A stretch of DNA of 64,000 nt from an uncultured bacterium (GTDB lineage: Bacteria > Bacillota_I > Bacilli_A > RF39 > UBA660). The position numbers and the translations under genes were made by a program. The DNA lies in assembly GCA_949285875.1 (NCBI GenBank), contig CASDZZ010000011.1:2289-66288 (forward strand), in the 5' to 3' direction. Position 1 is the first letter of the stretch; every line of letters starts with the position of its first letter. Below are positions 1-53,414 of the stretch, one piece after another. The notes beneath the pieces were generated by a model that saw only the letters and a list, made by a program, of their open reading frames with translations, made no database searches and had not been told where the DNA came from.

Positions 1-201
1 ACTATAACTACCCCATTTGATATGAGGGTTAAAAATAAACTAGACCGTTATAATCTAGTTATAGATGCCGTTAATAATTTAAATTTAGGTGAACTTGGTG
101 AAAAGATAATTAGCGATATGAAAGACAAATTATTAAAACATTCTAATTATATTGTAGAACATGGTGAAGACATGGAAGAAATAAGAAACTGGAAATTTTA
201 A
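1..201 (+). CDS. phosphoketolase (XFP family) C-terminal fragment; 5' end lies outside the window
   Basis: Frame 1 is open from base 1 to TAA 199-201. The tail TITTPFDMRVKNKLDRYNLVIDAVNNL...EHGEDMEEIRNWKF resembles the conserved C-terminus of xylulose-5-P/fructose-6-P phosphoketolases (family recall, no search run). Confidence 0.5.
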   Translation, partial: TITTPFDMRVKNKLDRYNLVIDAVNNLNLGELGEKIISDMKDKLLKHSNYIVEHGEDMEEIRNWKF

Positions 202-275
202 TATTTCTAGTTTTTTATATTTTTTAGGAGAATTTATTGTGTTATAATATGAATAATTTAAAAAGGAGAAAAAGA

Positions 276-1016
276 ATGAATAAAGTTGCGCTAATAACTG
301 GTGCTTCAAGGGGAATAGGAAGTGCTTGTGCTATAGAGTTTGCTAAACATAATTATAATATAATAATTAATTACGTATCTGATGATTCTTCAGCTTCAAA
401 ATTAAAAAGTATTATTACTGAAAACTATGGGGTAGATGTAATGCTTTATAAATGTGATGTATCAGACGAAAATAAAGTTAAAGATATGGTAGAAAAAAGC
501 TTGAATCATTTTGGAAGGATAGACGTACTTGTTAATAATGCGGGTATTGCAATTGATACAACTTTTGAAGATAAAACAGTAAGTAATTTTAGAAAAATAA
601 TTGATGTTAATTTAATAGGTCCTTTTTTAGTTTCAAGACAAGTTGGAAAATATATGATGAAAGAAAAAAAAGGAGTTATTATAAATGTTTCTTCTAATAA
701 TGCTTTAGAATCTTACTATGAATATAGTTTGGATTATGATGCTTCTAAGGCAGGACTTATTAACCTTACTCATAATTTATCTAAGTATTTTGCTCCATAT
801 ATAAGGGTTAATGCGGTAGCGCCTGGATGGGTTAATACAGAAATGAATAAAGAACTTGATAAAGATTATATAGATGAGGAAAGCAAGAATATATATTTAA
901 AAAGATTTGCAGAAAAAGAAGAGATTGCTAAAGTAATATACTTTTTAGCTAGTGATGATGCAAGTTATATAAATAATGAAGTAATAAGAGTTGATGGTGG
1001 AACAACTCATGATTAG
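276..1016 (+). CDS. SDR-family oxidoreductase, 3-oxoacyl-ACP reductase (FabG)-like
   Basis: ORF 237-1016; preferred start is ATG 276 behind AAAGGAG. TGASRGIG Rossmann motif, NNAG, and YDASK (YxxxK) catalytic motif. Confidence 0.85.
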   Translation: MNKVALITGASRGIGSACAIEFAKHNYNIIINYVSDDSSASKLKSIITENYGVDVMLYKCDVSDENKVKDMVEKSLNHFGRIDVLVNNAGIAIDTTFEDKTVSNFRKIIDVNLIGPFLVSRQVGKYMMKEKKGVIINVSSNNALESYYEYSLDYDASKAGLINLTHNLSKYFAPYIRVNAVAPGWVNTEMNKELDKDYIDEESKNIYLKRFAEKEEIAKVIYFLASDDASYINNEVIRVDGGTTHD

Positions 1017-1045
1017 AAAGTAATTTTTAAGAAAGATGTGATGAT

Positions 1046-2299
1046 ATGTATAATGATTTTAGTATAAGTGACAAAGCTAGGAAACTTGTTTTAAAAGCAG
1101 AAAAAGATTTAAAAGATGAGTTTCAAAAAATAGATGAAATATGTGATATAAATAGTTTAAAAGTACTTAAGGCTTTTAATAGAAATAATATTTCAGAAGC
1201 TCACTTTAATAGTACAACTGGATATGGTTATGATGATGTGGGAAGAGATGCTATAGAAAAAGTATTTGCTGAGGTTTTAGGTGCTGAAGATGCACTAGTA
1301 AGAAGTCAGTTTATTTCTGGATCTCATGCACTTAATGTGGCTTTATTTTCGTATTTAAGACCAGGAGATTTAATGCTTAGTATAACCGGAACACCCTATG
1401 ATACCTTACATGAGGTAATAGGAATAAAGGATAATCCTAGTTCATTAAAATCTTTTGGAATAAAATATGATCAAATTGATTTGATAAATGATGATTTTAA
1501 CTATCAAGGAATAACAGATTATTTAAAAAACAACAAAGTTAAATTAATAGAAATCCAGAGGTCAAAAGGGTATTCAACAAGGAAAAGTTTAACAATTGAT
1601 AAGTTAAAAAAAGTAATTGATGAAATAAGAAAAGTAGATAAAGAAGTTATTATAATGGTAGATAATTGTTATTGTGAATTTGTTGAAACTTTAACTCCTT
1701 GTGAAGTTGGAGCAGATATAATAGTTGGATCTTTAATTAAGAATTTAGGTGGAGGTATTGCACCTAATGGAGCTTATATTGCAGGAAGAAAAGATCTTAT
1801 TAATTTAGCTGGAGAAAGACTTACTTTGCCGGGTGAAGGAAGAGAAGTAGGACCTAGTTTGGGTATTAATAAAGCTATTTTGCAGGGATTTTTTATGGCT
1901 CCTAGTGTTGTAGCTTCTGCTTTAAAAACAGCTGTTTTAACTAGTAAAGTTTTGGAAGATTTGGGATTCAAGGTAGAGCCTAGGTATAATGATCAAAGAG
2001 CTGATATAGTTCAAAACATTATATTTGGAAATGAAAAAGATTTGGTTGATTATTGTGCAGGAATTCAAAATGCATCTCCTGTTGATTCCTTTGTAAATCC
2101 TATTCCTTGGGATATGCCGGGTTATGATGATAAAGTAGTTATGGCAGCAGGTGCATTCACACATGGTTCTTCTATTGAATTATCTTGTGATGGACCAATA
2201 AGGGAACCTTTTATAGCTTACCAGCAAGGTAGTTTGACTTATTCTTATGGTAAAATAGCTGTTATGAAGGCGGTTCAAAAATTACTTGATAATAAATAG
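1046..2299 (+). CDS. PLP-dependent methionine gamma-lyase-family protein (YnbB / aluminium-resistance-protein family)
   Basis: 417-aa ORF. The N-terminal region (AFNRNNISEAHFNSTTGYGYDDVGRD) and overall length and layout match the YnbB-type family as I recall it. Confidence 0.7.
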   Translation: MYNDFSISDKARKLVLKAEKDLKDEFQKIDEICDINSLKVLKAFNRNNISEAHFNSTTGYGYDDVGRDAIEKVFAEVLGAEDALVRSQFISGSHALNVALFSYLRPGDLMLSITGTPYDTLHEVIGIKDNPSSLKSFGIKYDQIDLINDDFNYQGITDYLKNNKVKLIEIQRSKGYSTRKSLTIDKLKKVIDEIRKVDKEVIIMVDNCYCEFVETLTPCEVGADIIVGSLIKNLGGGIAPNGAYIAGRKDLINLAGERLTLPGEGREVGPSLGINKAILQGFFMAPSVVASALKTAVLTSKVLEDLGFKVEPRYNDQRADIVQNIIFGNEKDLVDYCAGIQNASPVDSFVNPIPWDMPGYDDKVVMAAGAFTHGSSIELSCDGPIREPFIAYQQGSLTYSYGKIAVMKAVQKLLDNK

Positions 2300-2302
2300 C
2301 AA

Positions 2303-2339
2303 AAAGCGTAAAGATAACTAGTTTATCTTGCGCTTTTTT
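2303..2339 (+). terminator. rho-independent terminator
   Basis: aaagcgtaaagataa-ctag-ttatcttgcgcttt hairpin followed by a T-run directly after the stop at 2299. Confidence 0.7.
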
Positions 2340-2386
2340 AAATACTTTTAAAAACACGTGTTATAATAAATAGATAAGGAGGTAAT

Positions 2387-3802
2387 ATGAAAAATAAAAA
2401 TTTATTGTTTATAATATTTATTTCTATTTTTTTAATATTAATTCTTACTTATTTTACTTACTATAAAAAAAATATTATTATTAAAAATTTTACCGACCAC
2501 GAAAAGGTAGAAGTATTTAATGATTACAAAGAAAAGGGTCTTGATGTTTGCTATGGAAATAGACTAAGTTGTAAGAAAATTAAATATAAAAGAAGCGGAG
2601 AAGTTAACACTAGTAAGTTAGGTAATTATAAAATAACTTATGAAATAACTTACAAAGATAAAACTTTAATAAAAAACAAGATTGTAGAAGTGTCAGATTC
2701 TAAAGCTCCTGAATTAAAAATAGAAGGAACCCATGATAATGTTTGCCCAAATGGAAAGACTGATAAAGTAACATTTTCTGCTGTAGATAACTATGATGGT
2801 GATATAACTGATAAAATAAAGTATAAATTAGAAAATAATAGAATAATATATAAGGTAACTGATTCATCTGGAAATGAAACTAAAAAGGAGTTTGATGTTA
2901 CCATATATGATAATGAAAAACCAGTTCTAATTTTAGCGGGAGACCAAACCGTTTACTTAGGACTTGGAAATGATTATAAAGAAGATGGTTATACAGCTAT
3001 TGATAATTGTGATGGAAACATAACAAATAATGTTGAGGTAAAAGGAAAAGTTGATATTAATAAAGCAGGAACATACGAACTTATATATAGTGTAAAGGAC
3101 TCTTTTAATAACATAACAGAAGCTAGTAGAACCATTAAGGTATTTCCTAAAAATAATTACGTGCCTGGTCAAATATCTCCAAAAACGATATACTTAACAT
3201 TTGATGATGGGCCAGGACCTTATACTGAAAAACTACTTAATATATTAAATACTTATAACGCTAAAGCTACCTTTTTTGTTATAGGTACTAATACCAGATA
3301 TGATTATTTAATAACTAAAGAACACGAACAAGGTCATACGGTTGGTCTTCATAGTTTTACGCATGTTTATAGTAACATATATAGAAGTGTTGATTCCTAT
3401 ATGAATGATTTGTTAATGTTAAGAGATAAAGTTAAAAATCTTACTGGTACTGAATCTAGAATTATTAGGTTTCCTGGAGGAAGTTCTAATACGGTTAGCA
3501 AGAAATATAAAGTTGGTATAATGAATGAATTAACTAAAAAGGTAGAAGAAATAGGTTTTAGATACTTTGATTGGAATATAATGTCAGGAGATGCTGGAAA
3601 CACAAAAGATCCAAACAAAATAGTTCAAAATGTAATTTCAGGTATAAAACCTAATAATATAAATGTTGTTCTTATGCACGACATTAAACCTTATACAATA
3701 GAAGCAGTGCCTAGAATAATTGAATATGGGTTGGCAAATGGTTACACATTTGCACCACTTACAATGGAAAGCCCGGTAGTTCATCAAAAGGTAAATAATT
3801 AA
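2387..3802 (+). CDS. membrane-anchored polysaccharide deacetylase (NodB domain) with two Ig-like repeats
   Basis: N-terminal TM helix. Repeats DNYDGDITDKI and DNCDGNITNNV are DUF5011-type Ig-like. C-terminal NodB motifs TFDDGPGPYT and HSFTH. Confidence 0.85.
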   Translation: MKNKNLLFIIFISIFLILILTYFTYYKKNIIIKNFTDHEKVEVFNDYKEKGLDVCYGNRLSCKKIKYKRSGEVNTSKLGNYKITYEITYKDKTLIKNKIVEVSDSKAPELKIEGTHDNVCPNGKTDKVTFSAVDNYDGDITDKIKYKLENNRIIYKVTDSSGNETKKEFDVTIYDNEKPVLILAGDQTVYLGLGNDYKEDGYTAIDNCDGNITNNVEVKGKVDINKAGTYELIYSVKDSFNNITEASRTIKVFPKNNYVPGQISPKTIYLTFDDGPGPYTEKLLNILNTYNAKATFFVIGTNTRYDYLITKEHEQGHTVGLHSFTHVYSNIYRSVDSYMNDLLMLRDKVKNLTGTESRIIRFPGGSSNTVSKKYKVGIMNELTKKVEEIGFRYFDWNIMSGDAGNTKDPNKIVQNVISGIKPNNINVVLMHDIKPYTIEAVPRIIEYGLANGYTFAPLTMESPVVHQKVNN

Positions 3803-3827
3803 CGTATCAAATAGATACGTTTTTTTA
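3801..3827 (+). terminator. rho-independent terminator that is also an attP-like palindrome (see findings)
   Basis: aacgtatc-aaata-gatacgtt followed by T7, directly after the stop at 3802. Confidence 0.7.
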
Positions 3828-3885
3828 TGATGTTGTAATTATTTCAAAAAAATTTATTTGCATTTAATGTATTAGGGGTGAAAAA

Positions 3886-4557
3886 ATGGAAAAAAAAGGT
3901 ATTGATATAAGTTATCACCAAGGTAATATAGATTTTAAAAAGCTAAAGGAAAACGTTGATTTTGTAATGGTAAGAACTAGCTATGGTGATTTTTATGAGG
4001 ATAAGAGACATAAAGAATATATATCAGAATTAGAAAAATATAAAATTCCTTATGGCCTTTATCATTTTTCCTATGCTACTAGTGTAGAAGCTTCAAAAAA
4101 TGCGGCAAAAAAATTTATAAAATTAATAAAAAATTATAATCCTACTTATCCAGTAGTTATTGATATTGAGTCGTCAGAAGTTACAAGTGATGTTAGAAAT
4201 GATACTTTAGTAGAAATTACAAAAGCTTTTTGTGAAGAAGTAGAAAAATCAGGCTATTATGTAATGATATATGCTAATTTAGATTACTTAAATAATAAAT
4301 TAAATAATAGCATTTTAGATAAGTATGATAAATGGTTAGCACAGTGGTCTAATAAACCAACATATAATAAGCCTTTTGGTATGTGGCAATATTCTTCTAA
4401 GGGTAAGATTCCAGGTATTAATGGTAATGTTGATTTAAATATCGCTTATAAAGATTACCCAAGCTTAATACAAAAATTACCGGAGGAAGATTTAAAAGAA
4501 GATACTAATTATGTTGTGAAAAAAGGAGATACGATTTTTATGGGGAATAATGAGTAA
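3886..4557 (+). CDS. GH25 muramidase (lysozyme), 5' part of a gene interrupted at 4525-4533; as it stands it ends in a short element-encoded tail
   Basis: GIDISYHQGNIDF and MWQYSSKGKIPGINGNVDLN are typical GH25 motifs. The first LysM repeat begins YVVKKGDT and then breaks off into IFMGNNE*. Confidence 0.85.
   Translation: MEKKGIDISYHQGNIDFKKLKENVDFVMVRTSYGDFYEDKRHKEYISELEKYKIPYGLYHFSYATSVEASKNAAKKFIKLIKNYNPTYPVVIDIESSEVTSDVRNDTLVEITKAFCEEVEKSGYYVMIYANLDYLNNKLNNSILDKYDKWLAQWSNKPTYNKPFGMWQYSSKGKIPGINGNVDLNIAYKDYPSLIQKLPEEDLKEDTNYVVKKGDTIFMGNNE
4525..4533. repeat. attL core, 9-bp ggagatacg (identical copy at 8664-8672)
   Basis: Exact 9-bp identity at both junctions of the insertion that splits the lysozyme gene. 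Confidence 0.8.
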
Positions 4558-4659
4558 TAATTAAGGACTTTATTAAATAAATAAGATTATAAATGATGAA
4601 GGAGATATAAAAAACTACTTTTTGTGTGATATAATAATTGTAGAAATGAGGTGCAAATT

Positions 4660-5001
4660 GTGAATATAAATATTAATAGAGTAAAAATAATTTTTACAAT
4701 TCCTTTAAAAAATGTAGATGAAGTTAGAAATACAATCTGTGGTGTTGGTGCAGGAATTATTGGAAATTATACATATTGTTCAACATCTACTAAAGTGTTG
4801 GGAACATTTAAGCCAAATGATAATGCTAATCCTCATATTGGTGAAAAGAATAAATTGGAATTTGTTGAAGAAGAAAAAATAGAAGTGGTTTGTGATATAG
4901 AAAATGTTAAAAAAGTTATTCAAGAATTAAGAAAAATTCATCCTTATGAAGAACCGTCTATAGATATAATACCTTTATTGGATGAAGAGAATTTTAAGTA
5001 G
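4660..5001 (+). CDS. stand-alone NIF3/YqfO insert-domain-like protein (CutA/PII-like fold)
   Basis: ORF 4651-5001; GTG 4660 lies 6 nt after GAGGTG. GAGIIGNYTYCSTSTKVLGTFKPNDNANPHIGE...KIHPYEEPSIDIIPL resembles the inserted domain of NIF3-family proteins. Confidence 0.55.
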   Translation: MNININRVKIIFTIPLKNVDEVRNTICGVGAGIIGNYTYCSTSTKVLGTFKPNDNANPHIGEKNKLEFVEEEKIEVVCDIENVKKVIQELRKIHPYEEPSIDIIPLLDEENFK

Positions 5002-5016
5002 ATTAAGGTGATATGT

Positions 5017-5535
5017 ATGGGTGATCATGTAGAGTTATTGGATGTATATGATGATAAAGGGGTTAAAACTGGCAAAGTTGTTAAAAGAGGAGTAAAAGAT
5101 AGTTCGTTTAATAAAGGCGAACATATAGCAGTATCTATAATATATATTGAAAATGATAATGACGAATTTTTAATACAAAAAACATCAAGGCAAAAAGGGG
5201 GAATTTATTCATCAACAGGAGGCCATGTCAATCACAATGAAGAACCTATTGACACAATAAAAAGAGAAGTAAAAGAAGAATTAGGTATAGATATCGGTGA
5301 CGATAATATTATTGATTTAGGGTATATAAATTTTGATTTTCCTATTAGATTTGTATTTTATTTAAAAAGGAATATAGATTTGAATAATATTGTTTTGCAA
5401 AAAGAAGAAGTTGAAAGTGTTTCATATATGACATGTAATGAAATAATAAATATTATAGAAAAAGGTCTTATGCATAAAGCCCATGCCAAGATGTTAGAGC
5501 GAGTTTTAGAATATAAAAATAATATAGATTTATAA
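5017..5535 (+). CDS. NUDIX hydrolase
   Basis: Nudix box GGHVNHNEEPIDTIKREVKEELGI. ATG 5017 lies behind TAAGGTG. Confidence 0.8.
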   Translation: MGDHVELLDVYDDKGVKTGKVVKRGVKDSSFNKGEHIAVSIIYIENDNDEFLIQKTSRQKGGIYSSTGGHVNHNEEPIDTIKREVKEELGIDIGDDNIIDLGYINFDFPIRFVFYLKRNIDLNNIVLQKEEVESVSYMTCNEIINIIEKGLMHKAHAKMLERVLEYKNNIDL

Positions 5536-5547
5536 AAGGTTATAAAG

Positions 5548-6213
5548 ATGAATGAGGTGTTAAAAGTGTCTAAAGAAGAAAATGTAATAAAATATTATGT
5601 TCTATGCAATAAGCTGAAAAATATTATCAGAACAGGTTGGCAAGATTGGAATGTTAATCGTAATAGAATAGAGAGTGTTGCAGAGCACATATTTGGTGTT
5701 CAAATGCTAGCTATAGCCATGAAATCTGAATATCAATATGATATAGATATTATGAAAGTTATATATATGTTAGCAATTCATGAATTAGGTGAAACAATAA
5801 TTGGAGATTTGACTCAATTTCAAGTAAGTAAGGAAGAAAAAGAAAAAATGGAACATGAAGCAGTTCACAATGTACTATCTTTATTACTTGATGGCGAACA
5901 AATAGAACAACTATTTTTAGAATTTGATGCTCACCAAACTCCAGAAGCAATGTTTGCATATCAATGTGATAAACTAGAATGTGATATTCAAAGTAAATTA
6001 TATGATCAAGAAGGCTGTGTAGATTTATCGCATCAAGAAGGTAATACAACTGCAAATAATGAATTTGTAAAAAAAATATTAGAAAATGGACAATCATGGT
6101 CTGATATGTGGCTAGAATTTGGTCAAAGAAAATATCCATATGATCAAAATTTTATGTCTGTTTCAGCTTATGTTAAAAATAATGAAATAGGACAATCCTA
6201 TACAAAAAAATAA
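5548..6213 (+). CDS. HD-domain phosphohydrolase, YfbR-like 5'-deoxynucleotidase family
   Basis: RTGWQDW...ESVAEHIFGV...AIHELGETIIGDLT are HD motifs in the YfbR-type arrangement. Confidence 0.7.
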   Translation: MNEVLKVSKEENVIKYYVLCNKLKNIIRTGWQDWNVNRNRIESVAEHIFGVQMLAIAMKSEYQYDIDIMKVIYMLAIHELGETIIGDLTQFQVSKEEKEKMEHEAVHNVLSLLLDGEQIEQLFLEFDAHQTPEAMFAYQCDKLECDIQSKLYDQEGCVDLSHQEGNTTANNEFVKKILENGQSWSDMWLEFGQRKYPYDQNFMSVSAYVKNNEIGQSYTKK

Positions 6214-6262
6214 TATTATATTCAATCCAAATATAATTGATGAATACATTTACAAAGTTAAT

Positions 6263-6307
6263 TATCCTATATGTTTTTATAAATTTCTAAAAATAGGATA
6301 GTTTTTT
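6263..6307 (+). terminator. probable terminator of the NIF3-like/NUDIX/HD operon
   Basis: tatcctat...ataggata stem followed by gtttttt; the loop is rather long. Confidence 0.45.
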
Positions 6308-6589
6308 GATGATTAAACATATTTAAAAATAAGACTTAAAGTGTAATGATCTTATGTTTATGATTACAAAGTAGGTTGAATTTCGTAAGTACGAAATAAG
6401 AATGGTGTATACACAAGTCCTTATTTTATAAGGAAAAGTGCATGTTGTTACGCCATCTTCTTATCTGCTATTCAATATATTAATAGATTCTTGGTTATTT
6501 TAGGATGATAGACAAAACTTTCTATACTTTATGACTTGACTCTTCTTTTTTGTGAAGGTAACATGCATCATGCGAAGGAGATGATGTAT

Positions 6590-6736
6590 ATGAGAAGATT
6601 TAATTTTTATTTACTAGAGGAGTTATTTGAAAGAATTAAATTACTTGCAAAATTCTATAATATCTCTATAACTAAATTAATGATTGAACTACTAGAAATT
6701 GGATATATAGATATGATAGATACAAGAAAAAAATAA
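6590..6736 (+). CDS. small ribbon-helix-helix-like protein (48 aa)
   Basis: ATG 6590 lies 9 nt after AAGGAG. MRRFNFYLLEELFERIKLLAKFYNISITKLMIELLEIG has a CopG/RHH-like beta-alpha-alpha pattern. Confidence 0.45.
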   Translation: MRRFNFYLLEELFERIKLLAKFYNISITKLMIELLEIGYIDMIDTRKK

Positions 6737-6910
6737 ACAAGTTTATAAAAATGAAAGGATTAGGTGATGAATATGAATATAATGTTTTTTAAATTAATGG
6801 AGGTATATGATAATAAGTAATATTATTTATGAGTATGTTATAGGCATACCAAATAATATTACTAAAACAATGCTTATTGCCATAGAATTTATTGGAGGTA
6901 TATAAACTCT

Positions 6911-7096
6911 ATGGTTAAATACAAAGTTAATTTAAAGTTTAAAGAAAATGGAAAATCTTTAAATGAAATAATTACTGAAGTATTAAAAATTGAACTACAA
7001 AAGAAGATAAACATTACTTGCAATATATTAAAAAGAGAGCTACCATGTAATCATACTCATTATTCCCAAATGGAATGGAGTAGTAATTATTGGTAG
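6911..7096 (+). CDS. 61-aa hypothetical protein overlapping the recombinase start (candidate directionality factor or regulator)
   Basis: GGAGGT lies 10 nt upstream of ATG 6911. The stop overlaps the recombinase start by 7 nt. Confidence 0.45.
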   Translation: MVKYKVNLKFKENGKSLNEIITEVLKIELQKKINITCNILKRELPCNHTHYSQMEWSSNYW

Positions 7097-8652
7097 GGAA
7101 TAATAGTTTTAAAGTAGGAATATATATAAGATTATCAAGAGATGATGGTAATTTAGAATCTGATAGTATTGTTAGTCAAAGAAGTTTACTTAATCAATAT
7201 GTTAAAGAAAATAATTATAATCTTATAGAAGAATATGTTGATGATGGTTTTACTGGAACAAACTTTGAAAGACCATCATTTAAAAGAATGATTAAAGACA
7301 TTGAATTTGGAAGAATTAATATGATAATTACTAAAGATATGTCTAGATTAGGTAGAGATTATATTGGTACAGGAGAGTTAATTGAAAAGTATTTTCCAAA
7401 TAAAAATGTTAGGTATATTGCTATTAATGATGGGATTGATACATTTATAGATAATACTAATAATGATATAGCACCTTTTAAAGCAATTATGAATGATATG
7501 TATGCTAAAGATATTTCTAAAAAAGTTAAAACAAGTTTGCATTCTAGAATGAAAGAAGGATTATATGTATCTGGTAGATGTCCTTTTGGATATATGAAAG
7601 ATCCTAATAATAAAAACCATTTAGTTATAAATAAAGAACAAGCAGAAATTGTTAGATTAATCTTTGATTTAGCACTTAAAGGTAAGACATATCACTATAT
7701 AGCACAATACCTTACTGCAAGAAAAATAAAAACTCCAGCATCTTATTACAATTATGTATGGAATACAAAATGTAGTACAGAGTGTATAAGTCAAGAATAT
7801 GGTGTATGGGTAGATACAACTATAAAATCAATTTTAACTAATCAGATATATGTAGGAGATACAGTTCAAGGTAAGACTAAAAAGATTAATTATAAACTTA
7901 AAAAGACAGTTAAAAATAAACCAAATGATTTCATAATAGTCGAAAATACTCACGAAGAAATTATAGATAGAGAAACATTCAATTATGTTCAAACACTTTT
8001 ACCTAAAAATGTTAAAAGGCCAGAGAAGAAAAGATTTTATTTATTAGATGGGCTTTTATACTGTGGAGATTGTAAACACAGAATAACTGTTAGATATCAA
8101 AATAAAACTGGTAGAAGTTATACAACCTGTGATTATTATAGAACATATTCAAAGTATCATGTATGTACGACTCATACAAATAATTATGATGTGTTAGAAA
8201 GAGTTATTTTAGATAATATAAAAGAAGTTTGTAAAAATTATTTAGATAAGAACCAGATAACAGATTATATTGGTAATATGGAGTTTGAAGATAATACTTT
8301 AAAGATTAAAAAGCAAATTGAAAGTTTAGAAATTACTAATAATAAATTAACAGAAAACTTAGATAAGAACTATATGAATATGTTAAAAGGTATTATTGAT
8401 GAAGAACAATATTTGAGAATAAGTGAAAATCTAAAACAAGAAATAGCAAATAATAAATCAAGTATTGATAATCTTAAAAATGAAAGTAGTGAATCTAATA
8501 AAATAGATGAAAAGCAAATAGAAAAATATATTAATGAATTTTTATCTTTAGAAAATCCAACTAGAGAATTAATAATTAATTTAGTTGAAAAAATCTACAT
8601 CTATCAAGATAAAACGATAGATATTATATTTACATTTAAAAATGTTACATAA
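7090..8652 (+). CDS. large serine recombinase (resolvase/invertase N-domain plus recombinase, zinc-ribbon and coiled-coil C-terminal region)
   Basis: VGIYIRLSRDDG...SQR catalytic N-terminus. CGDCKHRI...C cysteine cluster. Long coiled-coil-like C-terminal region. 520 aa. The TTG start is uncertain. Confidence 0.9.
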   Translation: MVGNNSFKVGIYIRLSRDDGNLESDSIVSQRSLLNQYVKENNYNLIEEYVDDGFTGTNFERPSFKRMIKDIEFGRINMIITKDMSRLGRDYIGTGELIEKYFPNKNVRYIAINDGIDTFIDNTNNDIAPFKAIMNDMYAKDISKKVKTSLHSRMKEGLYVSGRCPFGYMKDPNNKNHLVINKEQAEIVRLIFDLALKGKTYHYIAQYLTARKIKTPASYYNYVWNTKCSTECISQEYGVWVDTTIKSILTNQIYVGDTVQGKTKKINYKLKKTVKNKPNDFIIVENTHEEIIDRETFNYVQTLLPKNVKRPEKKRFYLLDGLLYCGDCKHRITVRYQNKTGRSYTTCDYYRTYSKYHVCTTHTNNYDVLERVILDNIKEVCKNYLDKNQITDYIGNMEFEDNTLKIKKQIESLEITNNKLTENLDKNYMNMLKGIIDEEQYLRISENLKQEIANNKSSIDNLKNESSESNKIDEKQIEKYINEFLSLENPTRELIINLVEKIYIYQDKTIDIIFTFKNVT

Positions 8653-8663
8653 AAAACGTATCT

Positions 8664-8672
8664 GGAGATACG
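8664..8672. repeat. attR core, 9-bp ggagatacg, embedded in the palindrome aacgtatc-tgga-gatacgtt
   Basis: Exact repeat of 4525-4533. Confidence 0.8.
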
Positions 8673-8948
8673 TTAATTAAAATAGCTAGTAAATTTAATT
8701 TAGATTACAAAGTTTTGGCAGATTATAATAATATAAAAGATCCAAATAAAATTTATGAAAATCAAATTTTAAAAATTCCTTTAAAAGCTGAAAATTTACC
8801 AAATAAATATATTGTAAAAAAAGGCGATACATTAATAAAAATAGCAAAAGTATATGGAAAAGATTGGAAAGAAATATATGATAAAAATAAAGCTGTAATT
8901 GGAAATAATCCTAATGTTATAAAACCAGGGCAGATTTTGTATATTTAA
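8673..8948 (+). pseudogene. displaced 3' segment of the GH25 lysozyme gene (rest of LysM 1 plus LysM 2)
   Basis: The frame is open from the att core with no RBS. LIKIASKFNLDYKVLADYNNIKDPNKIYENQILKIP and YIVKKGDTLIKIAKVYG...IKPGQILYI are LysM repeats. In frame with 3886-4533. Confidence 0.8.
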
Positions 8949-10169: not shown

Positions 10170-11761
10170 CGTTAAATTTTAAGTAAAGTGCACAATTAAG
10201 TGCATTACGGTAAAAAATGTGCTTTTTCATAAGAAAATGCACATTTTTATACCGTTTTAAGAAGAAAATATATAAAAAAATAAATAAATATGTTATATTA
10301 TTAGTGTCAAAGAACAAATTGTTCCACGACAAAAAGACAGGAAGTGCAGGAATTTTAAAAGAAAGCGCACAATCTGTTTATCTTCAATATTATGGCAATT
10401 TATTTGTCAGATGGATATTTATAAGGGCTTGTTATAAATATCTTTTTTATTTTTTTAATAAGTTTTTATTAAGAATAACATCGTCTGGTTTAATGTAATA
10501 ACAATCTAATAATTTAAGTATACTTTTATCACACAAAAATAGCATTGCATTATAAGTACAATTTCCATTTAAAGAATCTCTGCATAGTGAATTAATGTTA
10601 TTCATAATTAAATTACAATCATTTCGATTTAAGTCTTTAAAAGAACTACCTTTAGGTAAAACATATCTAATAAATTCATGATTCTTTTCAATCATACCTT
10701 TTTGAGATGATATATGTGGATCACAAAAGAATAGGTGTGTAACATATTCTCCAGTTTTATGAATGCACTCTATGTTATTAACATCAAAAAATTCATGACC
10801 ATTATCAGTAAGAATAACTTGAAATAATTTTTTATAATCTTCATAAGGTAGAGTTTGTTGTAAATATTCAAATATTCTAGTAACTTCATCAGTTGTTTGA
10901 GATTCCAGTTTAAATATAAGCAAGAATTTAGATTTTCTCCAAAGAAGAGTAAGGAAACAATAAGGTTCATCTTGAGAGCCTTTAACAGTATCCATTTCAA
11001 CTATATTTAAGTCAGGATTGTTACTTATATATTCAACGAAATCATCATATTTTCTACCAATTAATATTTCACGTTCTTTTCTTGTTCTTCTTTTGTTGGA
11101 TTTTTTTCTTTTTTTATACTTAACAATTCTAGGAAAATCTAAAGGTCCAAAATCAAATACACCAGAATTAACATAGTTATAAAAAGAAGGTTTAGAAAAA
11201 TCTAAGATGTCAGGGTGATTGATATATAAATGATTAATAGTTTGTCCCTTTTTAATAAGAGGAGTAAGAGTAGTATTAATAACATAAACTTCCTCTGGCG
11301 TTAAATTAATACCTTTTCGAGCTTCCCTTTTTACTTCTCTATAAGTATCATCGGCTTTTCTAGCATAATAAGTATATCTTTCTTTTCTACAACCACTTCT
11401 TGATTTACAACCATTACAAACAAAAGGAGATTTATCTAATTTATCACAATGAAAATTATAGTTAGGGTTTTCAAATCTTCCATTAGTAGTCCAATTGTTG
11501 GGTTTAGAATAGGTTTTATTTCTATCTATTTCTCTTAAAATAGTTGAGTGTGATCTATTAATCTCTTTTGAAATTTGATTAATTGATTTATTATCATTTA
11601 GTCCATCTTCGATATTTTTTCTATCTTCGTAAGATAAGTGACAATACTTTGTCATAGTGAACAATACCTCCTTAATATGACAAATAAATCACCTTGGAAG
11701 TATTATATACGATTTCAAGACTTATTGCACATTAATTGTGCACTTCTTTTTTTTAAATACA
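10170..11761 (-). mobile_element. IS30-family insertion sequence (about 1.59 kb)
   Basis: Contains a single IS30-type transposase. Subterminal inverted repeats agtgcacaattaa(g)tgca at about 10187 and about 11725-11745. Flanked by a 12-bp direct repeat. Confidence 0.8.
10447..11664 (-). CDS. IS30-family transposase
   Basis: N-terminal HTH (SINQISKEINRSHSTILREIDRN). DDE region VEMDTVKG, ILTDNGHEF, SSQKGMIEKNHEFIRYVLPKG. Confidence 0.9.
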   Translation of the reverse strand: MFTMTKYCHLSYEDRKNIEDGLNDNKSINQISKEINRSHSTILREIDRNKTYSKPNNWTTNGRFENPNYNFHCDKLDKSPFVCNGCKSRSGCRKERYTYYARKADDTYREVKREARKGINLTPEEVYVINTTLTPLIKKGQTINHLYINHPDILDFSKPSFYNYVNSGVFDFGPLDFPRIVKYKKRKKSNKRRTRKEREILIGRKYDDFVEYISNNPDLNIVEMDTVKGSQDEPYCFLTLLWRKSKFLLIFKLESQTTDEVTRIFEYLQQTLPYEDYKKLFQVILTDNGHEFFDVNNIECIHKTGEYVTHLFFCDPHISSQKGMIEKNHEFIRYVLPKGSSFKDLNRNDCNLIMNNINSLCRDSLNGNCTYNAMLFLCDKSILKLLDCYYIKPDDVILNKNLLKK

Positions 11762-16344: not shown

Positions 16345-16419
16345 TGCCCTGTAGCCAAGTGGTAAGGCATCGGACTCTGACCCCGACATGCGCTGGTTCG
16401 AATCCAGCCAGGGCAACCA
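16345..16419 (+). tRNA. tRNA-Gln (anticodon CUG)
   Basis: Manual cloverleaf: acceptor tgccctg/cagggca, anticodon loop cuCUGac, TPsiC ggttcgaatcc, encoded CCA. Confidence 0.85.
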
Positions 16420-16427
16420 AAAATTTT

Positions 16428-16504
16428 GGCCCGTTGGTGAAGGGGTTTAACACATCGCCCTCTCAAGGCGACATTCACGAGTTCAAATCTCGTACGGGTC
16501 ACCA
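16428..16504 (+). tRNA. tRNA-Glu (anticodon CUC)
   Basis: Acceptor ggcccgt/acgggtc, anticodon stem tcgcc/ggcga with loop cuCUCaa, TPsiC gagttcaaatctc, encoded CCA. Confidence 0.85.
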
Positions 16505-30073: not shown

Positions 30074-30148
30074 GGGGCTATAGCCAAGCTGGTAAGGCAT
30101 TGGACTGCAACTCCACGATCGCCGGTTCAAATCCGGCTGGCCCCTCCA
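30074..30148 (+). tRNA. tRNA-Cys (anticodon GCA)
   Basis: Acceptor ggggcta/tggcccc, anticodon loop cuGCAac, discriminator U, encoded CCA. Confidence 0.85.
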
Positions 30149-30156
30149 AATTTTAT

Positions 30157-30231
30157 GCAGGTGTAGTACAACGGCTAGTACGCGGCCTTGCCAAGGCTGA
30201 GACGTGGGTTCGATTCCCATCACTTGCTCCA
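30157..30231 (+). tRNA. tRNA-Gly (anticodon GCC); its 3' end is the attL of the downstream island
   Basis: Acceptor gcaggtg/cacttgc (G4:U69 wobble), anticodon stem cggcc/ggctg with loop uuGCCaa, TPsiC gggttcgattccc, encoded CCA. Confidence 0.85.
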
Positions 30232-39773: not shown

Positions 39774-40880
39774 TCAAGATTCTTTTTTTATAAAAAATGT
39801 TTTTATAAAAATTACACTTATAATAATAATTAAAGGGAAAGCTAGATAAGGAACATAATAATCCTTAATTAAAATAATTGAATTTGGGATGTTTCCAAAA
39901 GCTGTATTAGCTAAAACCATGCTTATTAAAGCTATTATAATAACTGAAATTTTACTAGCTTTTTTATTTCTAACATAAATATTAAAATATTTTTTGATTC
40001 CATATAAAGAAGCGTTAGTTAATGAGAAAATATAAAAAATCCATCTAAATGCTAGTAAATTTTCTAAATGTAGGTCTGAATTTGAAAGTGCAATTTTTTT
40101 TAGCAAGATATATTCTGGATACCTAAATAAAGAAGCCATTTTATAACCAAAACAAGAAATAACAAAAAACATAACGATGGTAAGAGAAACTGATGTTAAT
40201 AGATAAAAAAGAATAATGTTTTTAGAAAACTTATTTTGGTCTACAATTCTTGATTTATTTATACTTAGTAATAAGAAACTTAATAGGGCGCAGCTAGAAG
40301 CATAATAAACGGATCCTTCAAAAATATTATTAAGAACATTACTAGTGTTTAGCATTGGCATAACATTATTTATTTCTACATACTTTAAAAGGAAAACTTC
40401 TATTATAATTACTAAAATTAAACTTAGAAAAAATAGTATTTGAGAAATTCTTAGTATTGTTTTAAGTCCTTTAAAATTAATTATTAAACTTGTTGTTATT
40501 ACCAATAATCCAATAAGGTAGAAAGGGGTTTGTTCTAAATATTTACTAATTAAAAATATAACGATTGATCTAATTGAGATTGTAAAAAAAATAAAGAAAA
40601 CTAAAAAGATTAAAAAGTTTAAAATGTTTCCTAAAATTGGATTAAATAATTTTAAATTTTTTTTATATATGTTAAGAGTAGGGTAAGTATTATTTATTTT
40701 TATAAACATTAAGATAGGTATTATACCTATTATTATTCCTATTACCATTGATATAAGAACATCATTTTGTGCTTTTTCTATTAGTATAATATCACTTAAT
40801 CCTAAATATAAGCTAGCACAAATTAAAGATAAAACCATTCCTATTTGCAAACTAGAAATTTTACTGTTCATATTAATCAT
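39774..40880 (-). CDS. spore germination protein, GerAB-type permease subunit
   Basis: 10-TM APC-like protein, last gene of an A-C-B germinant receptor operon. Confidence 0.8.
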   Translation of the reverse strand: MINMNSKISSLQIGMVLSLICASLYLGLSDIILIEKAQNDVLISMVIGIIIGIIPILMFIKINNTYPTLNIYKKNLKLFNPILGNILNFLIFLVFFIFFTISIRSIVIFLISKYLEQTPFYLIGLLVITTSLIINFKGLKTILRISQILFFLSLILVIIIEVFLLKYVEINNVMPMLNTSNVLNNIFEGSVYYASSCALLSFLLLSINKSRIVDQNKFSKNIILFYLLTSVSLTIVMFFVISCFGYKMASLFRYPEYILLKKIALSNSDLHLENLLAFRWIFYIFSLTNASLYGIKKYFNIYVRNKKASKISVIIIALISMVLANTAFGNIPNSIILIKDYYVPYLAFPLIIIISVIFIKTFFIKKES

Positions 40881-42066
40881 CCCCCTTTATAGATTTGATA
40901 GAAAGTTCTGTAGAATTTATATTAACGCTAACACTTACTTCAAAATTAATATTATTTAGAATTTTTTCTATCGTATAATTTTTTTCTTTCATTTCTTTAA
41001 ATTTTTTTTGATTAAATTTTGAACTATATTTTAAAACATCTGCTCTATTTTCCACGTATAATTTTTTTAAGGATGTATCCATTAGCTCTTTAATCTTTTT
41101 AGCTGCTTTTTTTTCTAATTCCTTAATATATTTGCTATCTTTGGTAAAATCAGCTTTGCAATTATATTCTGCCAAGTCGGCTTTAATGTCGCTTTTTATT
41201 TTTACATTAGGCTTTCCATTTATAAAAGATAAATTTTCTTCTAATTTTGAATCAGAAATTTTTATACTTGCATAATTATTTTCATCACATTTAATATTTA
41301 CGTAAGTTTCATTGGGAATATTTTTTAAGAAATTGTAGCCCGTGCTTTCTTCTTCAGAAAGATAACCTTTCAAAAGATTATTTTCAAAAAAACCTAGCGT
41401 TTCAAATCTTAACTTCGTTTTAGGATTACTTTCAGATATATTATCCATGTTTTCACCAGTAGAAGTTTTTCCTTCAATTTTTACGGCTGGTAAAATTGCT
41501 TCTTTTCCTTCGTTAATTAAATTTGATATAAATTCATCTATTGTTACTATTGTGAGCGTACCGCTGTAATTATCTGCTATATTAAGCGTTGATTTTAAAT
41601 TTCTTGTTGGAATTGTCTCAAGTGGGGTAATTATTTTTAAAACATCATCTGCTTTACTTTCTTTAGCTATTATAACTAAAGAGTCTTTTTCAACCTCAGA
41701 ATTTCTCATGAAAAAATCCAAATAATTTAAAGGATCTTTTTCTCTTAATAGATTTTCATTAATTACGATAACTTCATTGTGCCCTAGATAAATTTCTTTT
41801 GAAGAATCTAGCATTATTTTTTCTAGAGCTTCAAAAATGGTATTACCACTTGCTTTAAAGAATGTGATTAAACTGTTATCACTTTCTTCATCTTTTTTTG
41901 CATTCATGATTTGTATGCCAACATCATACTTTGTTTTATCTTTTTCATTTTGATCTATTGATATTCCAGAGACTATAGCATAATTATTTATTTCTTCATA
42001 GTTATAGCAGCCACATAGGCTAAAAATAAGTAATAAGAAAATACATATTTTAATTATCTTTTTCAT
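40873..42066 (-). CDS. Ger(x)C-family germinant receptor lipoprotein
   Basis: Start MKKIIKICIFLLLIFSLCGC (lipobox). CYNYEEINNYAIVSGISIDQ is typical of the GerAC N-terminus. Confidence 0.8.
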   Translation of the reverse strand: MKKIIKICIFLLLIFSLCGCYNYEEINNYAIVSGISIDQNEKDKTKYDVGIQIMNAKKDEESDNSLITFFKASGNTIFEALEKIMLDSSKEIYLGHNEVIVINENLLREKDPLNYLDFFMRNSEVEKDSLVIIAKESKADDVLKIITPLETIPTRNLKSTLNIADNYSGTLTIVTIDEFISNLINEGKEAILPAVKIEGKTSTGENMDNISESNPKTKLRFETLGFFENNLLKGYLSEEESTGYNFLKNIPNETYVNIKCDENNYASIKISDSKLEENLSFINGKPNVKIKSDIKADLAEYNCKADFTKDSKYIKELEKKAAKKIKELMDTSLKKLYVENRADVLKYSSKFNQKKFKEMKEKNYTIEKILNNINFEVSVSVNINSTELSIKSIKGDD

Positions 42067-43495
42067 CAGTATCCTCCTTATTAAAAATATTTTGAGGATC
42101 AAATTTTGCCTCGTTTTCAGATAAAATAGCATCTTTTTGAGCTTTTAAATTAAATGGTTCGAAAGGAAAAAAGTAAGGTTCTCCGCAGGATTTTTCACTT
42201 ATTAATAAAGCTAGCAAAATTATAAAGCCAAACAATACACCAATAAAACCAAAAAAGGATGCAAGAAAGATTAAAAATAATTGCCACCATTTTATGGAAT
42301 TAATCAATTCAATCGAGCTGAAAGCTAGGCTAGCTACAGAGCTAATTCCTACTATTATTATGGTAATAGGTGAAACTATTCCAGCTTCTACAGCTGCCTG
42401 ACCTAAAACTAAAGCTCCCACAATGGATATAGAACTTCCTCCCTTACCTGGAAATCTCATATCACTTTCCCTTAAAACTTGAAACATAAAACTCATTACT
42501 ATTATTTCAAATACGGTCGAAAAAGGAACACCATCTCTTTGAATAGAAAAGTTGATTAAAAGCCCGCTAGGTAAAGCTTCCTGATTATAAGCCATTAATG
42601 ATATATAAATAGCGGGAGTTAAAATAGCTAATAACATAGCTATTATTCTTATAATACGATTTCCTATAACATTTAGACTTTTTTCGTAATAATCTTCAGG
42701 ATTTTTAAAAAAATCTATAAATAAACAAGGAAGAATAATTACCTCATTAGAATTCTCGGTCATTAAAGCTATTCTTCCTTCTAGTAAAAGCTGACAAACC
42801 AAATCAGGTCTTTCGGTTGTTAAAACAGTAGGGAAAATAAACCTATTAGTATTACTTATGGCATCTACTATATAATTAGTATTACCTACATATTTAATTT
42901 TTATCTTATCTATTTTTTCACTTATTCTTTTTACTATATTATTGTTACAAACACCATCTATATAAAAAAGAGCTACTTTTGTTTTACTTTCAGTTCCGAT
43001 AGTTTTTTCTTCAATCCATAATTTCTCTGTTTTTAATCTTCTTCTAATCATTCCCATATTAAACTGATAGTTTTCACTAAAAGCATCACTAGGCCCTTTT
43101 ATACCTTTTTCATTTTCACTTTTATTTATGGAACTATAAATGGGAGCTCTATTTTCAAAAGCAAGTAGTTTTCCGTCATCAAAAATACTTACGGTAAATC
43201 CGCTCATTATAAAATAGGTGATTTGATCTTCTTGATCAAAAGAGACGATATTATTATTTGGTATAAAGTTTTTTATGTAGTCATATAAATTTTGTTTTTT
43301 GATATTTTCAAAATCTTCATCAATTCTTCTTAAAATAAAATCATTTATACCATTTGAACTACTAACGCACATAGAATAAACGAACGTAACTGTTTCTTCA
43401 TTAATCTTAAAATCTTTAAATTTTATATCTGGTGCATTATTAGTATTTTTTTTAATTTCACTAATTAATTTTTCTCTTTTATTCATTTTTTTCAT
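42050..43495 (-). CDS. spore germination protein, GerAA-type subunit
   Basis: LRESDMRFPGKGGSSISIVGALVLGQAAVEAGIVSP signature region; 481 aa. Confidence 0.85.
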   Translation of the reverse strand: MKKMNKREKLISEIKKNTNNAPDIKFKDFKINEETVTFVYSMCVSSSNGINDFILRRIDEDFENIKKQNLYDYIKNFIPNNNIVSFDQEDQITYFIMSGFTVSIFDDGKLLAFENRAPIYSSINKSENEKGIKGPSDAFSENYQFNMGMIRRRLKTEKLWIEEKTIGTESKTKVALFYIDGVCNNNIVKRISEKIDKIKIKYVGNTNYIVDAISNTNRFIFPTVLTTERPDLVCQLLLEGRIALMTENSNEVIILPCLFIDFFKNPEDYYEKSLNVIGNRIIRIIAMLLAILTPAIYISLMAYNQEALPSGLLINFSIQRDGVPFSTVFEIIVMSFMFQVLRESDMRFPGKGGSSISIVGALVLGQAAVEAGIVSPITIIIVGISSVASLAFSSIELINSIKWWQLFLIFLASFFGFIGVLFGFIILLALLISEKSCGEPYFFPFEPFNLKAQKDAILSENEAKFDPQNIFNKEDTDEKDN

Positions 43496-46244: not shown

Positions 46245-46377
46245 ATTATTTTCCTCCCTAATTTTATCATGGCATCAAATTAAATATTTTAAACATAATT
46301 TAAGTTGCTAAAAATATTTTTTTTACGTATAATAAAATACATAAAGATAAAAAGGTATGTGGAGGAATACCATTTAT

Positions 46378-46510
46378 TTAGCGCCAGGCCTTTAAATAGG
46401 TGACGAGGATGATAGTTATCGAAATATTCGGCGGATGCTATCACGGATTTGTGAAACGTAAAAAATACTTCAAAAAATAAAATAAAAATTATAACAAAAA
46501 GTATTTTGCA
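46378..46510 (+). promoter_or_regulatory. glmS ribozyme
   Basis: AGCGCCAGG...GGTGACGAGGATGATAGTTATCGAAATATTCGGCGGATGCTATCACGG matches the conserved glmS ribozyme core. P4 pairing aaaatactt/aagtatttt. Lies directly upstream of glmS. Confidence 0.85.
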
Positions 46511-46542
46511 CAATTATTTTTATTATGTAAAAGGAGAAAAAA

Positions 46543-53288: not shown

Positions 53289-53414
53289 TTAAATCACCAT
53301 TATTAAGTATAGAGTAAATATATTAAAAAAACAATTTTTTATTTGTAAAAATTAAAAATATATTCTTTTTTTCTTGCTTTAGGACTTTAAATATAATATA
53401 CTATAATTATTAAA

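Follow-up and report, generated by a model that had tools for sequence, protein, structure and literature searches.

The 64,000-nucleotide stretch of DNA analysed here (the window; contig CASDZZ010000011.1, from an uncultured bacterium of the Bacillota_I lineage RF39) contains a gene for a GH25 lysozyme that is split by an element encoding a large serine recombinase (LSR), raising the question as to what kind of element this is, and whether and when it leaves the gene. A preliminary description proposed a gene-intervening element of the skin or SPbeta kind, dedicated to this one gene. The first part of that proposal stands, in that an LSR element does split a GH25/LysM gene, but the element is not skin- or SPbeta-like, having no phage genes and a length of only 4.1 kb; nor is it dedicated to the lysozyme gene, since its recombinase family enters the same motif in many unrelated LysM genes of many hosts. 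The finding is broader than was first noted, the element being one of a family of LSR cassettes that target a LysM motif. To the complete reading that we prefer, in which such an integrated cassette is excised at sporulation, we give a probability of about 0.45.

The split lysozyme gene and its junctions

Coordinates refer to the window, and the features of the split gene and of the cassette all lie on its + strand. In the ORF list (open reading frames, ORFs) the GH25 muramidase ORF runs from 3886 to 4557 (223 aa) and is truncated within its first LysM repeat, with the C terminus NYVVKKGDT/IFMGNNE followed by a stop codon, the slash marking the junction. The 5′ segment of the split gene (3886-4533) codes for the catalytic domain, with Glyco_hydro_25 spanning residues 6-178 of its product in Pfam, and for the first nine codons of LysM repeat 1; it specifies no signal peptide, and the truncated 223-residue product retains the complete catalytic domain. 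The tail IFMGNNE and its stop codon (4534-4557), which end the truncated host protein, are encoded by the element within the right arm of attP and are conserved in the family. The 3′ segment (8673-8948) supplies the remainder of LysM repeat 1, LysM repeat 2 and a stop codon; its frame is open throughout, both LysM motifs are conserved, and at the junction there is neither a ribosome-binding site (RBS) nor a start codon for it.

Joining 3886-4533 to 8673-8948 yields an ORF of 924 nt (307 aa), and the same product results from any join within 4524-4533. Pfam recognises Glyco_hydro_25 (E 9.5e-32) and two LysM repeats (E 1.1e-24) in the joined protein, and the junction, NYVVKKGDT/LIKIASKF, aligns without gaps with 13 full-length homologues having the consensus NYVVKKGDTLxxIASKY. 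The closest full-length homologue is 76% identical, and the GH25 plus LysM architecture is common to >1,000 database proteins at E <= 1e-20, the listed matches being 57-76% identical. The in-frame continuation put forward in the preliminary description is borne out by these alignments and by intact orthologues elsewhere. Uninterrupted GH25-LysM genes, for which that description had suggested a search, are present at the same locus in three related metagenome-assembled genomes (MAGs) labelled 'uncultured Bacilli' (L003-L005), with 63-65% identity and the gene order SDR, methionine gamma-lyase-like, polysaccharide deacetylase, GH25-LysM, two TasA-like, SipW and a third TasA-like gene. The split gene itself is chromosomal and outside any prophage, and adjoins a gene for a PdaB/PgdA-like deacetylase. 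Its interrupted arrangement recurs in two metagenome contigs (L001 and L002) whose flanking and cargo proteins are 100% identical; protein searches gave no intact allele of the window species' own gene.

Both junctions carry the 9-bp repeat GGAGATACG, as first reported, and this sequence is present only at these two places in the 64-kb window (4525-4533 and 8664-8672); shuffled sequences give an expectation of 0.06 copies, and two or more copies were seen in 0/100 shuffles. The cassette so delimited extends from 4527 to 8665 (4,139 bp, 25.0% GC) or, owing to the repeat, equivalently from 4534 to 8672. In attL (4500-4551; crossover GG at 4525-4526) the host half codes for Y-V-V-K-K and the element half, AGATACGATTTTTATGGGGAATAAT, corresponds to the right arm of attP, which is conserved. 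In attR (8640-8691; GG at 8664-8665) the element half contains the stop codon of the recombinase gene, 11 nt before the repeat and as close as had been described, and the host half codes for (G)DTLIKIAS. Both sites are intact and conform to the family consensus. The attP reconstructed from them is AAAAAACGTATCT-GG-AGATACGATTTTT, and by inspection its arms match at 12/13 positions as an inverted repeat around GG, again as first noted. The predicted attB junction is GTGAAAAAAGGAGATACGTTAATTAAAA, also written TTGTGAAAAAAGGAGATACGTTAATTAAAATAGC, and the predicted attP junction is AAAAAACGTATCTGGAGATACGATTTTTATGG, also written ACATAAAAAACGTATCTGGAGATACGATTTTTATGGGG. A second LysM-start motif in the gene (8808-8845; YIVKKGDTLIKI) is unoccupied, and is the sole other site in the window that conforms to the family attB consensus.

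The recombinase gene (7090-8652) has a TTG start and encodes a protein of 520 aa with its catalytic serine in YIRLSRDD and with Resolvase (PF00239), Recombinase (PF07508) and Zn_ribbon_recom (PF13408) domains, all past the Pfam cut-offs; DUF4368 was not detected in the Pfam scan. The protein falls in PHROG 95, an integrase (E 1.5e-105), and the closest solved relative of its catalytic domain is TnpX (E 4e-29). CcrB and CcrC are its top NCBIfam matches, CcrB with 120 bits against a cut-off of 900, and there is no equivalog-level NCBIfam match to any characterised recombinase. Comparison of LSR pairs gives a ratio of nonsynonymous to synonymous divergence (dN/dS) of 0.09-0.15 at dS 0.3-0.6, and the LSR is under purifying selection and maintained.

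Overlapping the start of the LSR gene is a small conserved ORF, o61 (6911-7096), which like the LSR ORF is intact in the window. Its product is 59-65 aa long across the family, with 917 homologue clusters, and it lies directly 5′ of the LSR gene in every family locus for which that region was read. No match to o61 was found in Pfam, NCBIfam, PADLOC, PHROG or PDB, and its AlphaFold model is a single long helix with a predicted local distance difference test (pLDDT) score of 67; a C-x8-C-x-H-x-H motif in the window protein, considered as a zinc motif, is unconserved in the family. Because of its position and size o61 is the natural candidate for a recombination directionality factor, a role to which we would assign slightly less than an even chance.

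A family of cassettes in LysM-coding DNA

Relatives of the LSR form more than 120 database protein clusters at 84-91% identity, and the recombinases of the family as defined here are 77-93% identical. A single JGI metagenome scan returned 457 related loci, and we examined the genomic contexts of ∼45 close relatives, from which 29 distinct right-hand sites and 20 distinct complete attL/attR pairs could be taken. All 29 distinct insertions lie at the same GG in LysM-coding DNA, within the motif Y-x-V-x-x-G/D-[TS]-L-x-x-I-A. At the left junction the host sequence for Y-x-V-x-x is always followed by GG, NGATACNNTTTTTATGGGGAATAATGAG and a stop codon, and at the right junction of every locus with an intact 3′ end the LSR stop codon is followed by AAAAWYGTATCW-GG, the sequence before the GG being GTATCW, and then by host DNA encoding G-D-[TS]-L-[YW/..]-x-I-A. 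The family attP is an imperfect palindrome, AAAAAWYGTATCW-GG-NGATACNNTTTTTATGGGGAATAAT, that is near-invariant in the logo over ∼50 bp. The attB logo is informative over ∼40 bp and reads tTATAc.GT.aAaa.aGG.GAtac.tTaT..ag.AT.gC, or in codons TAY NNN GTN AAR NNN GG/N GAY WSN YTN ... ATH GCN. This logo has a three-base periodicity, as would be expected if attB is held constant by the protein motif and not as a DNA site.

The only position identical between attL and attR in all 20 complete pairs is the GG, and the crossover is placed there for that reason; since GG is not palindromic, the orientation of the insertion and the reading frame are therefore fixed. Three loci (L039, L040 and L041) differ in that the 8 nt on the element side of the GG in attL (for example L039 at ∼5363-5380) are CGACACGC, equal to the host side of attR, in place of the usual element sequence AGATACGA, which gives a 13-bp repeat and probably results from gene conversion by adjacent LysM repeats of almost the same sequence. 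These loci might suggest a crossover on the right-hand side of the 9-bp repeat, a placing that we reject because only the GG is shared by all pairs.

Elements of the family range in size from 2.9 to 11.2 kb, and excision in silico restores an open, LysM-containing ORF in all 20 complete pairs. Their targets are varied: GH25 plus LysM genes, comprising that of the window and those of L039-L041 in an Acutalibacteraceae host of 45-50% GC; Amidase_3 genes with two to six LysM repeats, whose best family match is of the CwlD type and below the cut-off; an M23 gene with two LysM repeats; and several LysM-only genes. The same gene may be entered in different repeats, as at residue 319 in L014 and residue 430 in L050, or in LysM1 in L020 and LysM2 in L054. 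Among more distant relatives, LSR groups at 53-56% and 37-41% identity were considered as further LysM-targeting recombinases and do not adjoin LysM DNA; because these LSRs do not target LysM, the rule is confined to the clade with at least 77% identity.

Natural empty sites prove the precision of the in-silico excision for the family. Prediction of attB from L054 gives a sequence that agrees at 92/92 positions with the unoccupied site of L020, and the reverse comparison gives 89/92 with no indel; contig L118 is an empty L011 locus, and matches L011 after excision in silico over 6,988 nt with 99.57% identity and no gap. The exact reconstituted proteins of L011, L020, L039 and L068 occur as ordinary genes in public assemblies, the L011-type gene being represented by split products on ∼40 contigs and intact on three, and the L039-type lysozyme being intact on hundreds of contigs. 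Occupied and empty alleles are found side by side within species for these other members of the family, and we consider it likely that the window element, too, is still competent for precise excision. One contig of 3,836 nt (L042) consists of exactly one cassette, beginning 9 nt past the GG of attL and ending at the GG of attR, which suggests that the assembly graph branched at both ends, either from several insertion contexts or from mixed excised and integrated forms. In L059 the LysM-only target gene appears to start with ATA where its L011 relative has ATG, which could be a sequencing variant or else a start-codon mutation, and so a sign that a gene interrupted for a long time is decaying.

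The family spreads horizontally between hosts. In L039-L041 a cassette of 23.7% GC sits within Acutalibacteraceae DNA of 45-50% GC, the hosts of the family as a whole span 24% to 50% GC, and the window LSR belongs to a 920-member cluster at 90% identity, whereas a collection of 15 billion proteins contains none that is at least 90% identical to the housekeeping proteins of the window. In two loci from IMG/VR (L020 and L021, positions 1-8400) the M23 plus LysM target lies within a few kb of tail-fibre-like and holin-like genes, and these loci also carry an intact GH25 plus LysM endolysin gene with its LysM motif unoccupied; the cassette can thus sit within or beside prophage lysis regions, which might offer it a hitch-hiking route.

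The window element is, almost certainly, a mobile LSR cassette that targets LysM-coding DNA. The family is large and, with an attB that is a protein-domain motif, apparently undescribed: LysM is not mentioned in Durrant 2022 or its supplements, and a full-text literature search on LysM with serine recombinase, integrase or attB returned nothing pertinent, its one match being an unrelated review. The concept of gene-intervening elements is widened accordingly, from known cases of one element and one gene to one recombinase clade and one protein-domain motif that lead to many genes. That selection on a protein motif should keep attB constant would account for the wide host range of a recombinase that is site-specific and not promiscuous, and, if true, the LysM motif would offer a docking site in almost any Firmicute with scar-free, in-frame restoration guaranteed. 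The natural attP, the 29 right-hand attB half-sites (20 of them complete) and the empty sites are also a ready resource for recombinase engineering.

Excision, its timing and the competing explanations

In the reading that we prefer, the LSR inserts its cargo cassette into an attB consisting of DNA that codes for the N-terminal motif of LysM, and each insertion truncates the host protein after 'G-D-x' and adds the seven-residue tail encoded by the element. Recombination between attL and attR by the LSR would free the cassette as a circle of 4,139 bp and rejoin the ORF with single-nucleotide precision, so that in the window it would again encode the 307-aa GH25 muramidase with two LysM repeats; the co-translated, 61-aa o61 would be required for excision as the directionality factor. 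A mother-cell sigma factor may fire the o61-LSR operon from a conserved CATAGAAT promoter, in which case the cassette would leave the terminal mother-cell chromosome only and stay in the spore germline, and the wall-binding form of the lysozyme would be made only in the mother cell.

Several observations are consistent with such timing. The host is an endospore former, as had been proposed, judging by the germinant-receptor operon GerXA/GerXC/germination permease at 39774-43495. A promoter-like pair, TACTAAA-N14-CATAGAAT (6860-6888), lies directly 5′ of the o61 RBS, and of the 29 distinct elements 26 share its -10 box, CATAGAAT, without change and three have it with one substitution, the sequence of the spacer being variable. 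The pattern KMATAWW-N13-15-CATANAHT has 11 matches on the two strands of the window (0.086 per kb per strand), and the sole one that precedes an RBS and a start codon is that of the o61-LSR operon. In Clostridium difficile the mother-cell -10 sequence is CATATTAT / CATATAAT, with -35 elements of ATA for sigmaE and AC for sigmaK (PMC3789822); CATAGAAT matches this -10. The targets of the family show a related pattern, with CATAnnnT 15-30 nt before the start codon in 8 of 12 evaluable target genes and in 9 of 120 neighbours (Fisher p = 5e-6), and a signal peptide is absent, by inspection, from 14 of 15 complete target proteins, which is the pattern of spore proteins made in the mother cell and also of phage endolysins. 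Excision timed to sporulation and to the mother cell is on these grounds plausible, its chances being close to even but on the lower side.

Other observations weigh against this reading. The -35 region of the o61-LSR promoter block has two spacing types, making its assignment ambiguous, and recognition by sigmaA may be possible, as CATAGAAT includes TAGAAT and CATATAAT includes TATAAT. The promoter region of the window GH25 gene has CATTTAAT (CATYTAAT in five species), which is not a strict CATA box; the L039 target has a signal peptide and is secreted; and the M23 target adjoins phage lysis and tail genes. Neither a recognisable fold nor homology to any known directionality factor was seen for o61, whose constant co-expression with the LSR is unusual for directionality control. 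Truncation is not a simple switch-off of the lysozyme gene, the catalytic domain being kept, and the intact gene of sister species means that the insertion is no ancient, fixed device. The exact joined 307-aa protein was not found in the collection of 15 billion proteins, neither the attB nor the attP junction of the window element was found in assemblies, and the attP pattern GTATCWGGRGATASNMTTTTTATGGGGAATAATG has no match among IMG/VR viral contigs; an attP following the recombinase gene was likewise seen in 0/80 metagenome loci. Finally, the empty alleles of the family are heritable strain variants, reflecting gain and loss in the germline and not excision in the mother cell.

Two further results concern promoters. 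A scan for sigma-70-type promoters gave sites no more frequent than in shuffled sequences. Upstream of the GH25-LysM gene the blocks TAATTATT-N17-CATYTAAT are kept in five species (window 3840-3885 and L003-L006); they fit none of the sigmaA, E, F, G or K consensus sequences cleanly, and may represent either a sporulation promoter of variant form or the site of a regulator.

Among described systems the nearest is gin, which splits gerE in Bacillus cereus ATCC 10987 (PMC5595907). Like the cassette, gin is a non-phage, LSR-moved, gene-intervening element for which precise reconstitution of the ORF is expected, and the two have in common a shared core of 9 bp, an inverted repeat of the attP type with a dinucleotide at its centre, and a very small, conserved partner ORF in which no motif is recognised (in gin the 42-aa directionality factor GirX, which accompanies the LSR GirC; PMC5595907). 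They differ in that gin is 28.6 kb long with three recombinases and the single target gerE (PMC5595907), whereas the cassette has 4.1 kb and a domain motif in many genes; in that the partner ORF overlaps the recombinase start in the cassette, unlike gin; and in that sporulation-specific excision has been demonstrated for gin (PMC5595907), whereas the cassette is known here from sequence alone. The elements skin (in sigK; SpoIVCA or CD1231 with CD1234), SPbeta (in spsM; SprA/SprB), vfbin, vrin and yin (in yabG) are alike in being LSR-bearing DNA that splits a gene of a spore former, but these are prophages or their remnants, tens of kb long and at one locus each, whereas the cassette is free of phage genes and found at many loci. 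In the skin and SPbeta type the directionality factor or the recombinase is under a sporulation sigma factor, and the same logic of excision in the mother cell only would apply to the cassette. Among sporulation genes, those published as targets of intervening elements are sigK, spsM, spoVFB, spoVR, gerE and yabG, with no LysM or wall-hydrolase gene among them (PMC10747680), and the lysozyme gene is, as had been claimed, of a type outside this list. The regulatory-switch phages of active lysogeny, such as the Listeria A118-like phages in comK, also interrupt a host gene reversibly by means of an LSR (PMC10747680), but the cassette, unlike these, is non-phage and its target is a domain motif.

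If the mother-cell timing is true, developmentally rearranged genes in gut spore formers would extend far beyond the six published targets, and would include cell-wall hydrolases, which are dangerous to the cell when mistimed. The more far-reaching form of this proposal, that cassettes with a domain-motif attB and an o61-LSR operon wired to the mother cell split dozens of wall-hydrolase and LysM genes developmentally in spore formers, each of these genes then holding exchangeable cargo for defence, resistance or metabolism in the germline, with an undescribed structured RNA upstream of the recombination module possibly gating expression of the LSR, we offer as tentative, and think the odds run against it.

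The strongest competing explanation, a serious contender although we would put its chances below even, is that of a purely selfish, transposon-like LSR cassette that inserts and excises sporadically by means of the LSR, with or without o61, for which LysM DNA is an abundant, conserved, multi-copy safe harbour and whose insertion merely removes the wall-binding repeats of the lysozyme. The many targets and hosts, the variable accessory and defence cargo, the presence/absence polymorphism within species, the intact gene in sister species and the best NCBIfam matches, CcrB and CcrC, all agree with it, and multi-targeting LSRs with complex motifs are known (Durrant 2022). By the definition of that study (LSR clusters at 90% with more than three unrelated target-gene clusters) the family is multi-targeting, its targets being GH25, Amidase_3, M23 and LysM-only genes; the relaxed, short target of multi-targeting LSRs, a dinucleotide with weak flanks, is not seen, attB being ∼40 bp long and confined to LysM.

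The elements Tn4451/Tn4453 (TnpX) and Tn5397 (TndX) are models for such a cassette, being small clostridial LSR elements with many target sites and a circular intermediate. TnpX of Tn4451 transposes without a helper, and TnpX and TndX have a 2-bp target; the plain-transposon model stays alive because the catalytic domain of the window LSR is closest to this helper-independent enzyme. The target dinucleotide of TnpX and TndX is GA, with flanks that resemble the transposon ends. The cassette is unlike these elements in its GG core, its ∼40-bp attB of specific, protein-motif sequence as against short, GA-centred sites, and its insertions, which are always in frame and in one orientation. TnpX/TndX elements often carry DUF4368 and Mob/oriT functions, and the window LSR is without DUF4368, a hallmark of the TndX-like multi-targeting clade that is present in 63% of its members (Durrant 2022). 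The staphylococcal cassette chromosome (SCC; CcrAB/CcrC, at orfX/rlmH) offers another parallel, as a cargo-swapping LSR cassette in conserved coding sequence with composite and variable cargo, but it has one target gene, which it enters at the 3′ end and leaves active, and is found in staphylococci, and the window LSR is below the CcrB cut-off (120 vs 900). What the selfish cassette leaves unexplained are the invariant CATAGAAT box before the operon, the enrichment of the box in target promoters (p = 5e-6) and the near-universal lack of signal peptides in the targets.

That the cassette is a domesticated element like skin or SPbeta, dedicated to the GH25 gene and inherited vertically within the sporulation programme, is largely refuted by the family data and now seems improbable, notwithstanding the precise in-frame geometry, the spore-forming host and the mother-cell-type box before the recombinase operon. 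There are no phage genes, the orthologue is uninterrupted in the three nearest species, recombinases of the same clade occupy at least 29 further LysM sites, the genes and hosts being unrelated, and the LSR is shared far more widely than any host gene of the genome. Slightly less probable still is a dead insertion, in which a fixed cassette, no longer able to excise, has left the lysozyme gene as a truncated pseudogene or as a neofunctionalised, LysM-less enzyme. Such an outcome would fit with the truncated ORF having a complete catalytic domain, with the same configuration in two further metagenome contigs, and with no empty allele or circle having been found for the window species; but both att sites are intact and match the family consensus, the LSR and o61 are intact and under purifying selection, and the frame of the 3′ fragment has stayed fully open and kept its two conserved LysM motifs, which is unexpected after long disuse. 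An artefact of chance or annotation, in which 8673-8948 is an independent small LysM gene (a TTG-initiated, 77-aa ORF can be drawn at 8715-8948) and the 9-bp repeat a coincidence, is refuted by the repeat statistics (0.06 expected by chance), the seamless join as aligned with >1,000 homologues, the syntenic intact orthologues and the identical junction anatomy of 20 independent family insertions.

Cargo, a structured motif and other features of the window

Between attL and the o61-LSR operon the cassette carries a 116-aa ORF (4651-5001) with no family assignment and with TGATATAAT upstream, an extended -10 by inspection; a NUDIX hydrolase gene (5008-5535; Pfam NUDIX, E 4e-13; PHROG 1198); and a gene for an HD phosphohydrolase of the HD_3, YfbR-like 5′-deoxynucleotidase type (5548-6213; Pfam HD_3, E 3e-29). 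A 48-aa ORF (6590-6736), which is a gene call in L002, is ribbon-helix-helix-like by inspection only and has no Pfam or NCBIfam match; alignments show it to be kept in some members of the family and deleted in others. Phage structural and lysis genes are absent from the cassette, for which PHROGs gave only integrase and NUDIX- or HD-type matches, and a known defence system was considered as the cargo and set aside, there being only a weak PDC-S07 match for the NUDIX protein.

Cargo elsewhere in the family includes DpnII-type restriction-modification, an OLD-family nuclease, AAA with S8 protease, radical SAM, RhuM, SWIM and BspA-LRR proteins, and extra genes for tyrosyl-, threonyl- and prolyl-tRNA synthetases (TyrRS, ThrRS and ProRS). 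The synthetase genes are found in L043 (7973-9157), L053 (the same 395-aa protein), L044 (2534-4069) and L070 (5046-6335); mobile paralogues of aminoacyl-tRNA synthetases frequently give resistance to natural synthetase inhibitors. Accessory genes are moved among gut Firmicutes by these cassettes, in which transfer genes are absent.

A structured RNA-like (or single-stranded DNA) motif of ∼150 nt lies at 6333-6479, identified by RNAalifold, model matches and pair counts, with helices at ∼6363-6375, 6380-6397, 6399-6409 paired with 6449-6461, and 6418-6434. Across 30 sequences 94.3% of cells pair, compared with 38-50% for slid partners; double changes are seen in 18/30 pairs, and the observed values were reached in 0/500 shuffles. 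G-U pairs favour the + strand. There is no Rfam match at gathering thresholds, the only matches being to snoRNAs at chance level (E > 2). The motif always has the orientation of the LSR gene, which it precedes by 0.3-0.6 kb, with further examples in L011 (7264-7412), L014 (7455-7603), L039 (6878-7025), L071 (2673-2821) and L072 (9539-9686 and 17853-18001), and it is also found beside some of the LSR relatives at 53-56% identity, which do not target LysM. It is followed downstream by the invariant CATCTTCTTAT(C)CTG and by the invariant CATCTTCTTATCCTG, which by inspection could pair with the invariant RBS AAGGAGATGATG ∼110 nt further downstream. The motif could be a leader or riboswitch-like regulator, a small RNA, or a single-stranded DNA site such as oriT, and, conserved beside LSR genes, is a candidate for a new cis-regulatory RNA.

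Upstream of the split gene, 65 nt from the GH25 start, the terminator of the deacetylase gene contains an attP-like palindrome on the + strand, AACGTATC-aaata-GATACGTT with a T-run (3801-3821). This hairpin shares its 8-nt arms with the palindrome of attR (8655-8674) and is attP-like over ∼40 nt, with a centre that lacks the GG; the pattern has two copies in the window against 0.00 expected. The orthologous loci, which have unrelated hairpins at this place, and the other family loci lack it. Possible readings are a pseudo-att site, a site bound by the recombinase, a fossil or a product of chance.

Further downstream, between the second TasA-like gene and SipW, there is an IS30-family transposase gene at 10447-11664 on the - strand (NCBIfam, E 6e-34); the syntenic loci L004 and L005 have no insertion sequence at that place, and L004 has a 196-aa ORF there. 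An Rfam scan found no rRNA in the 64-kb window, which otherwise contains ordinary features, namely a glmS ribozyme, a T-box leader and two tRNA gene pairs (46369-46517, 53409-53624, 16345-16501 and 30074-30228).

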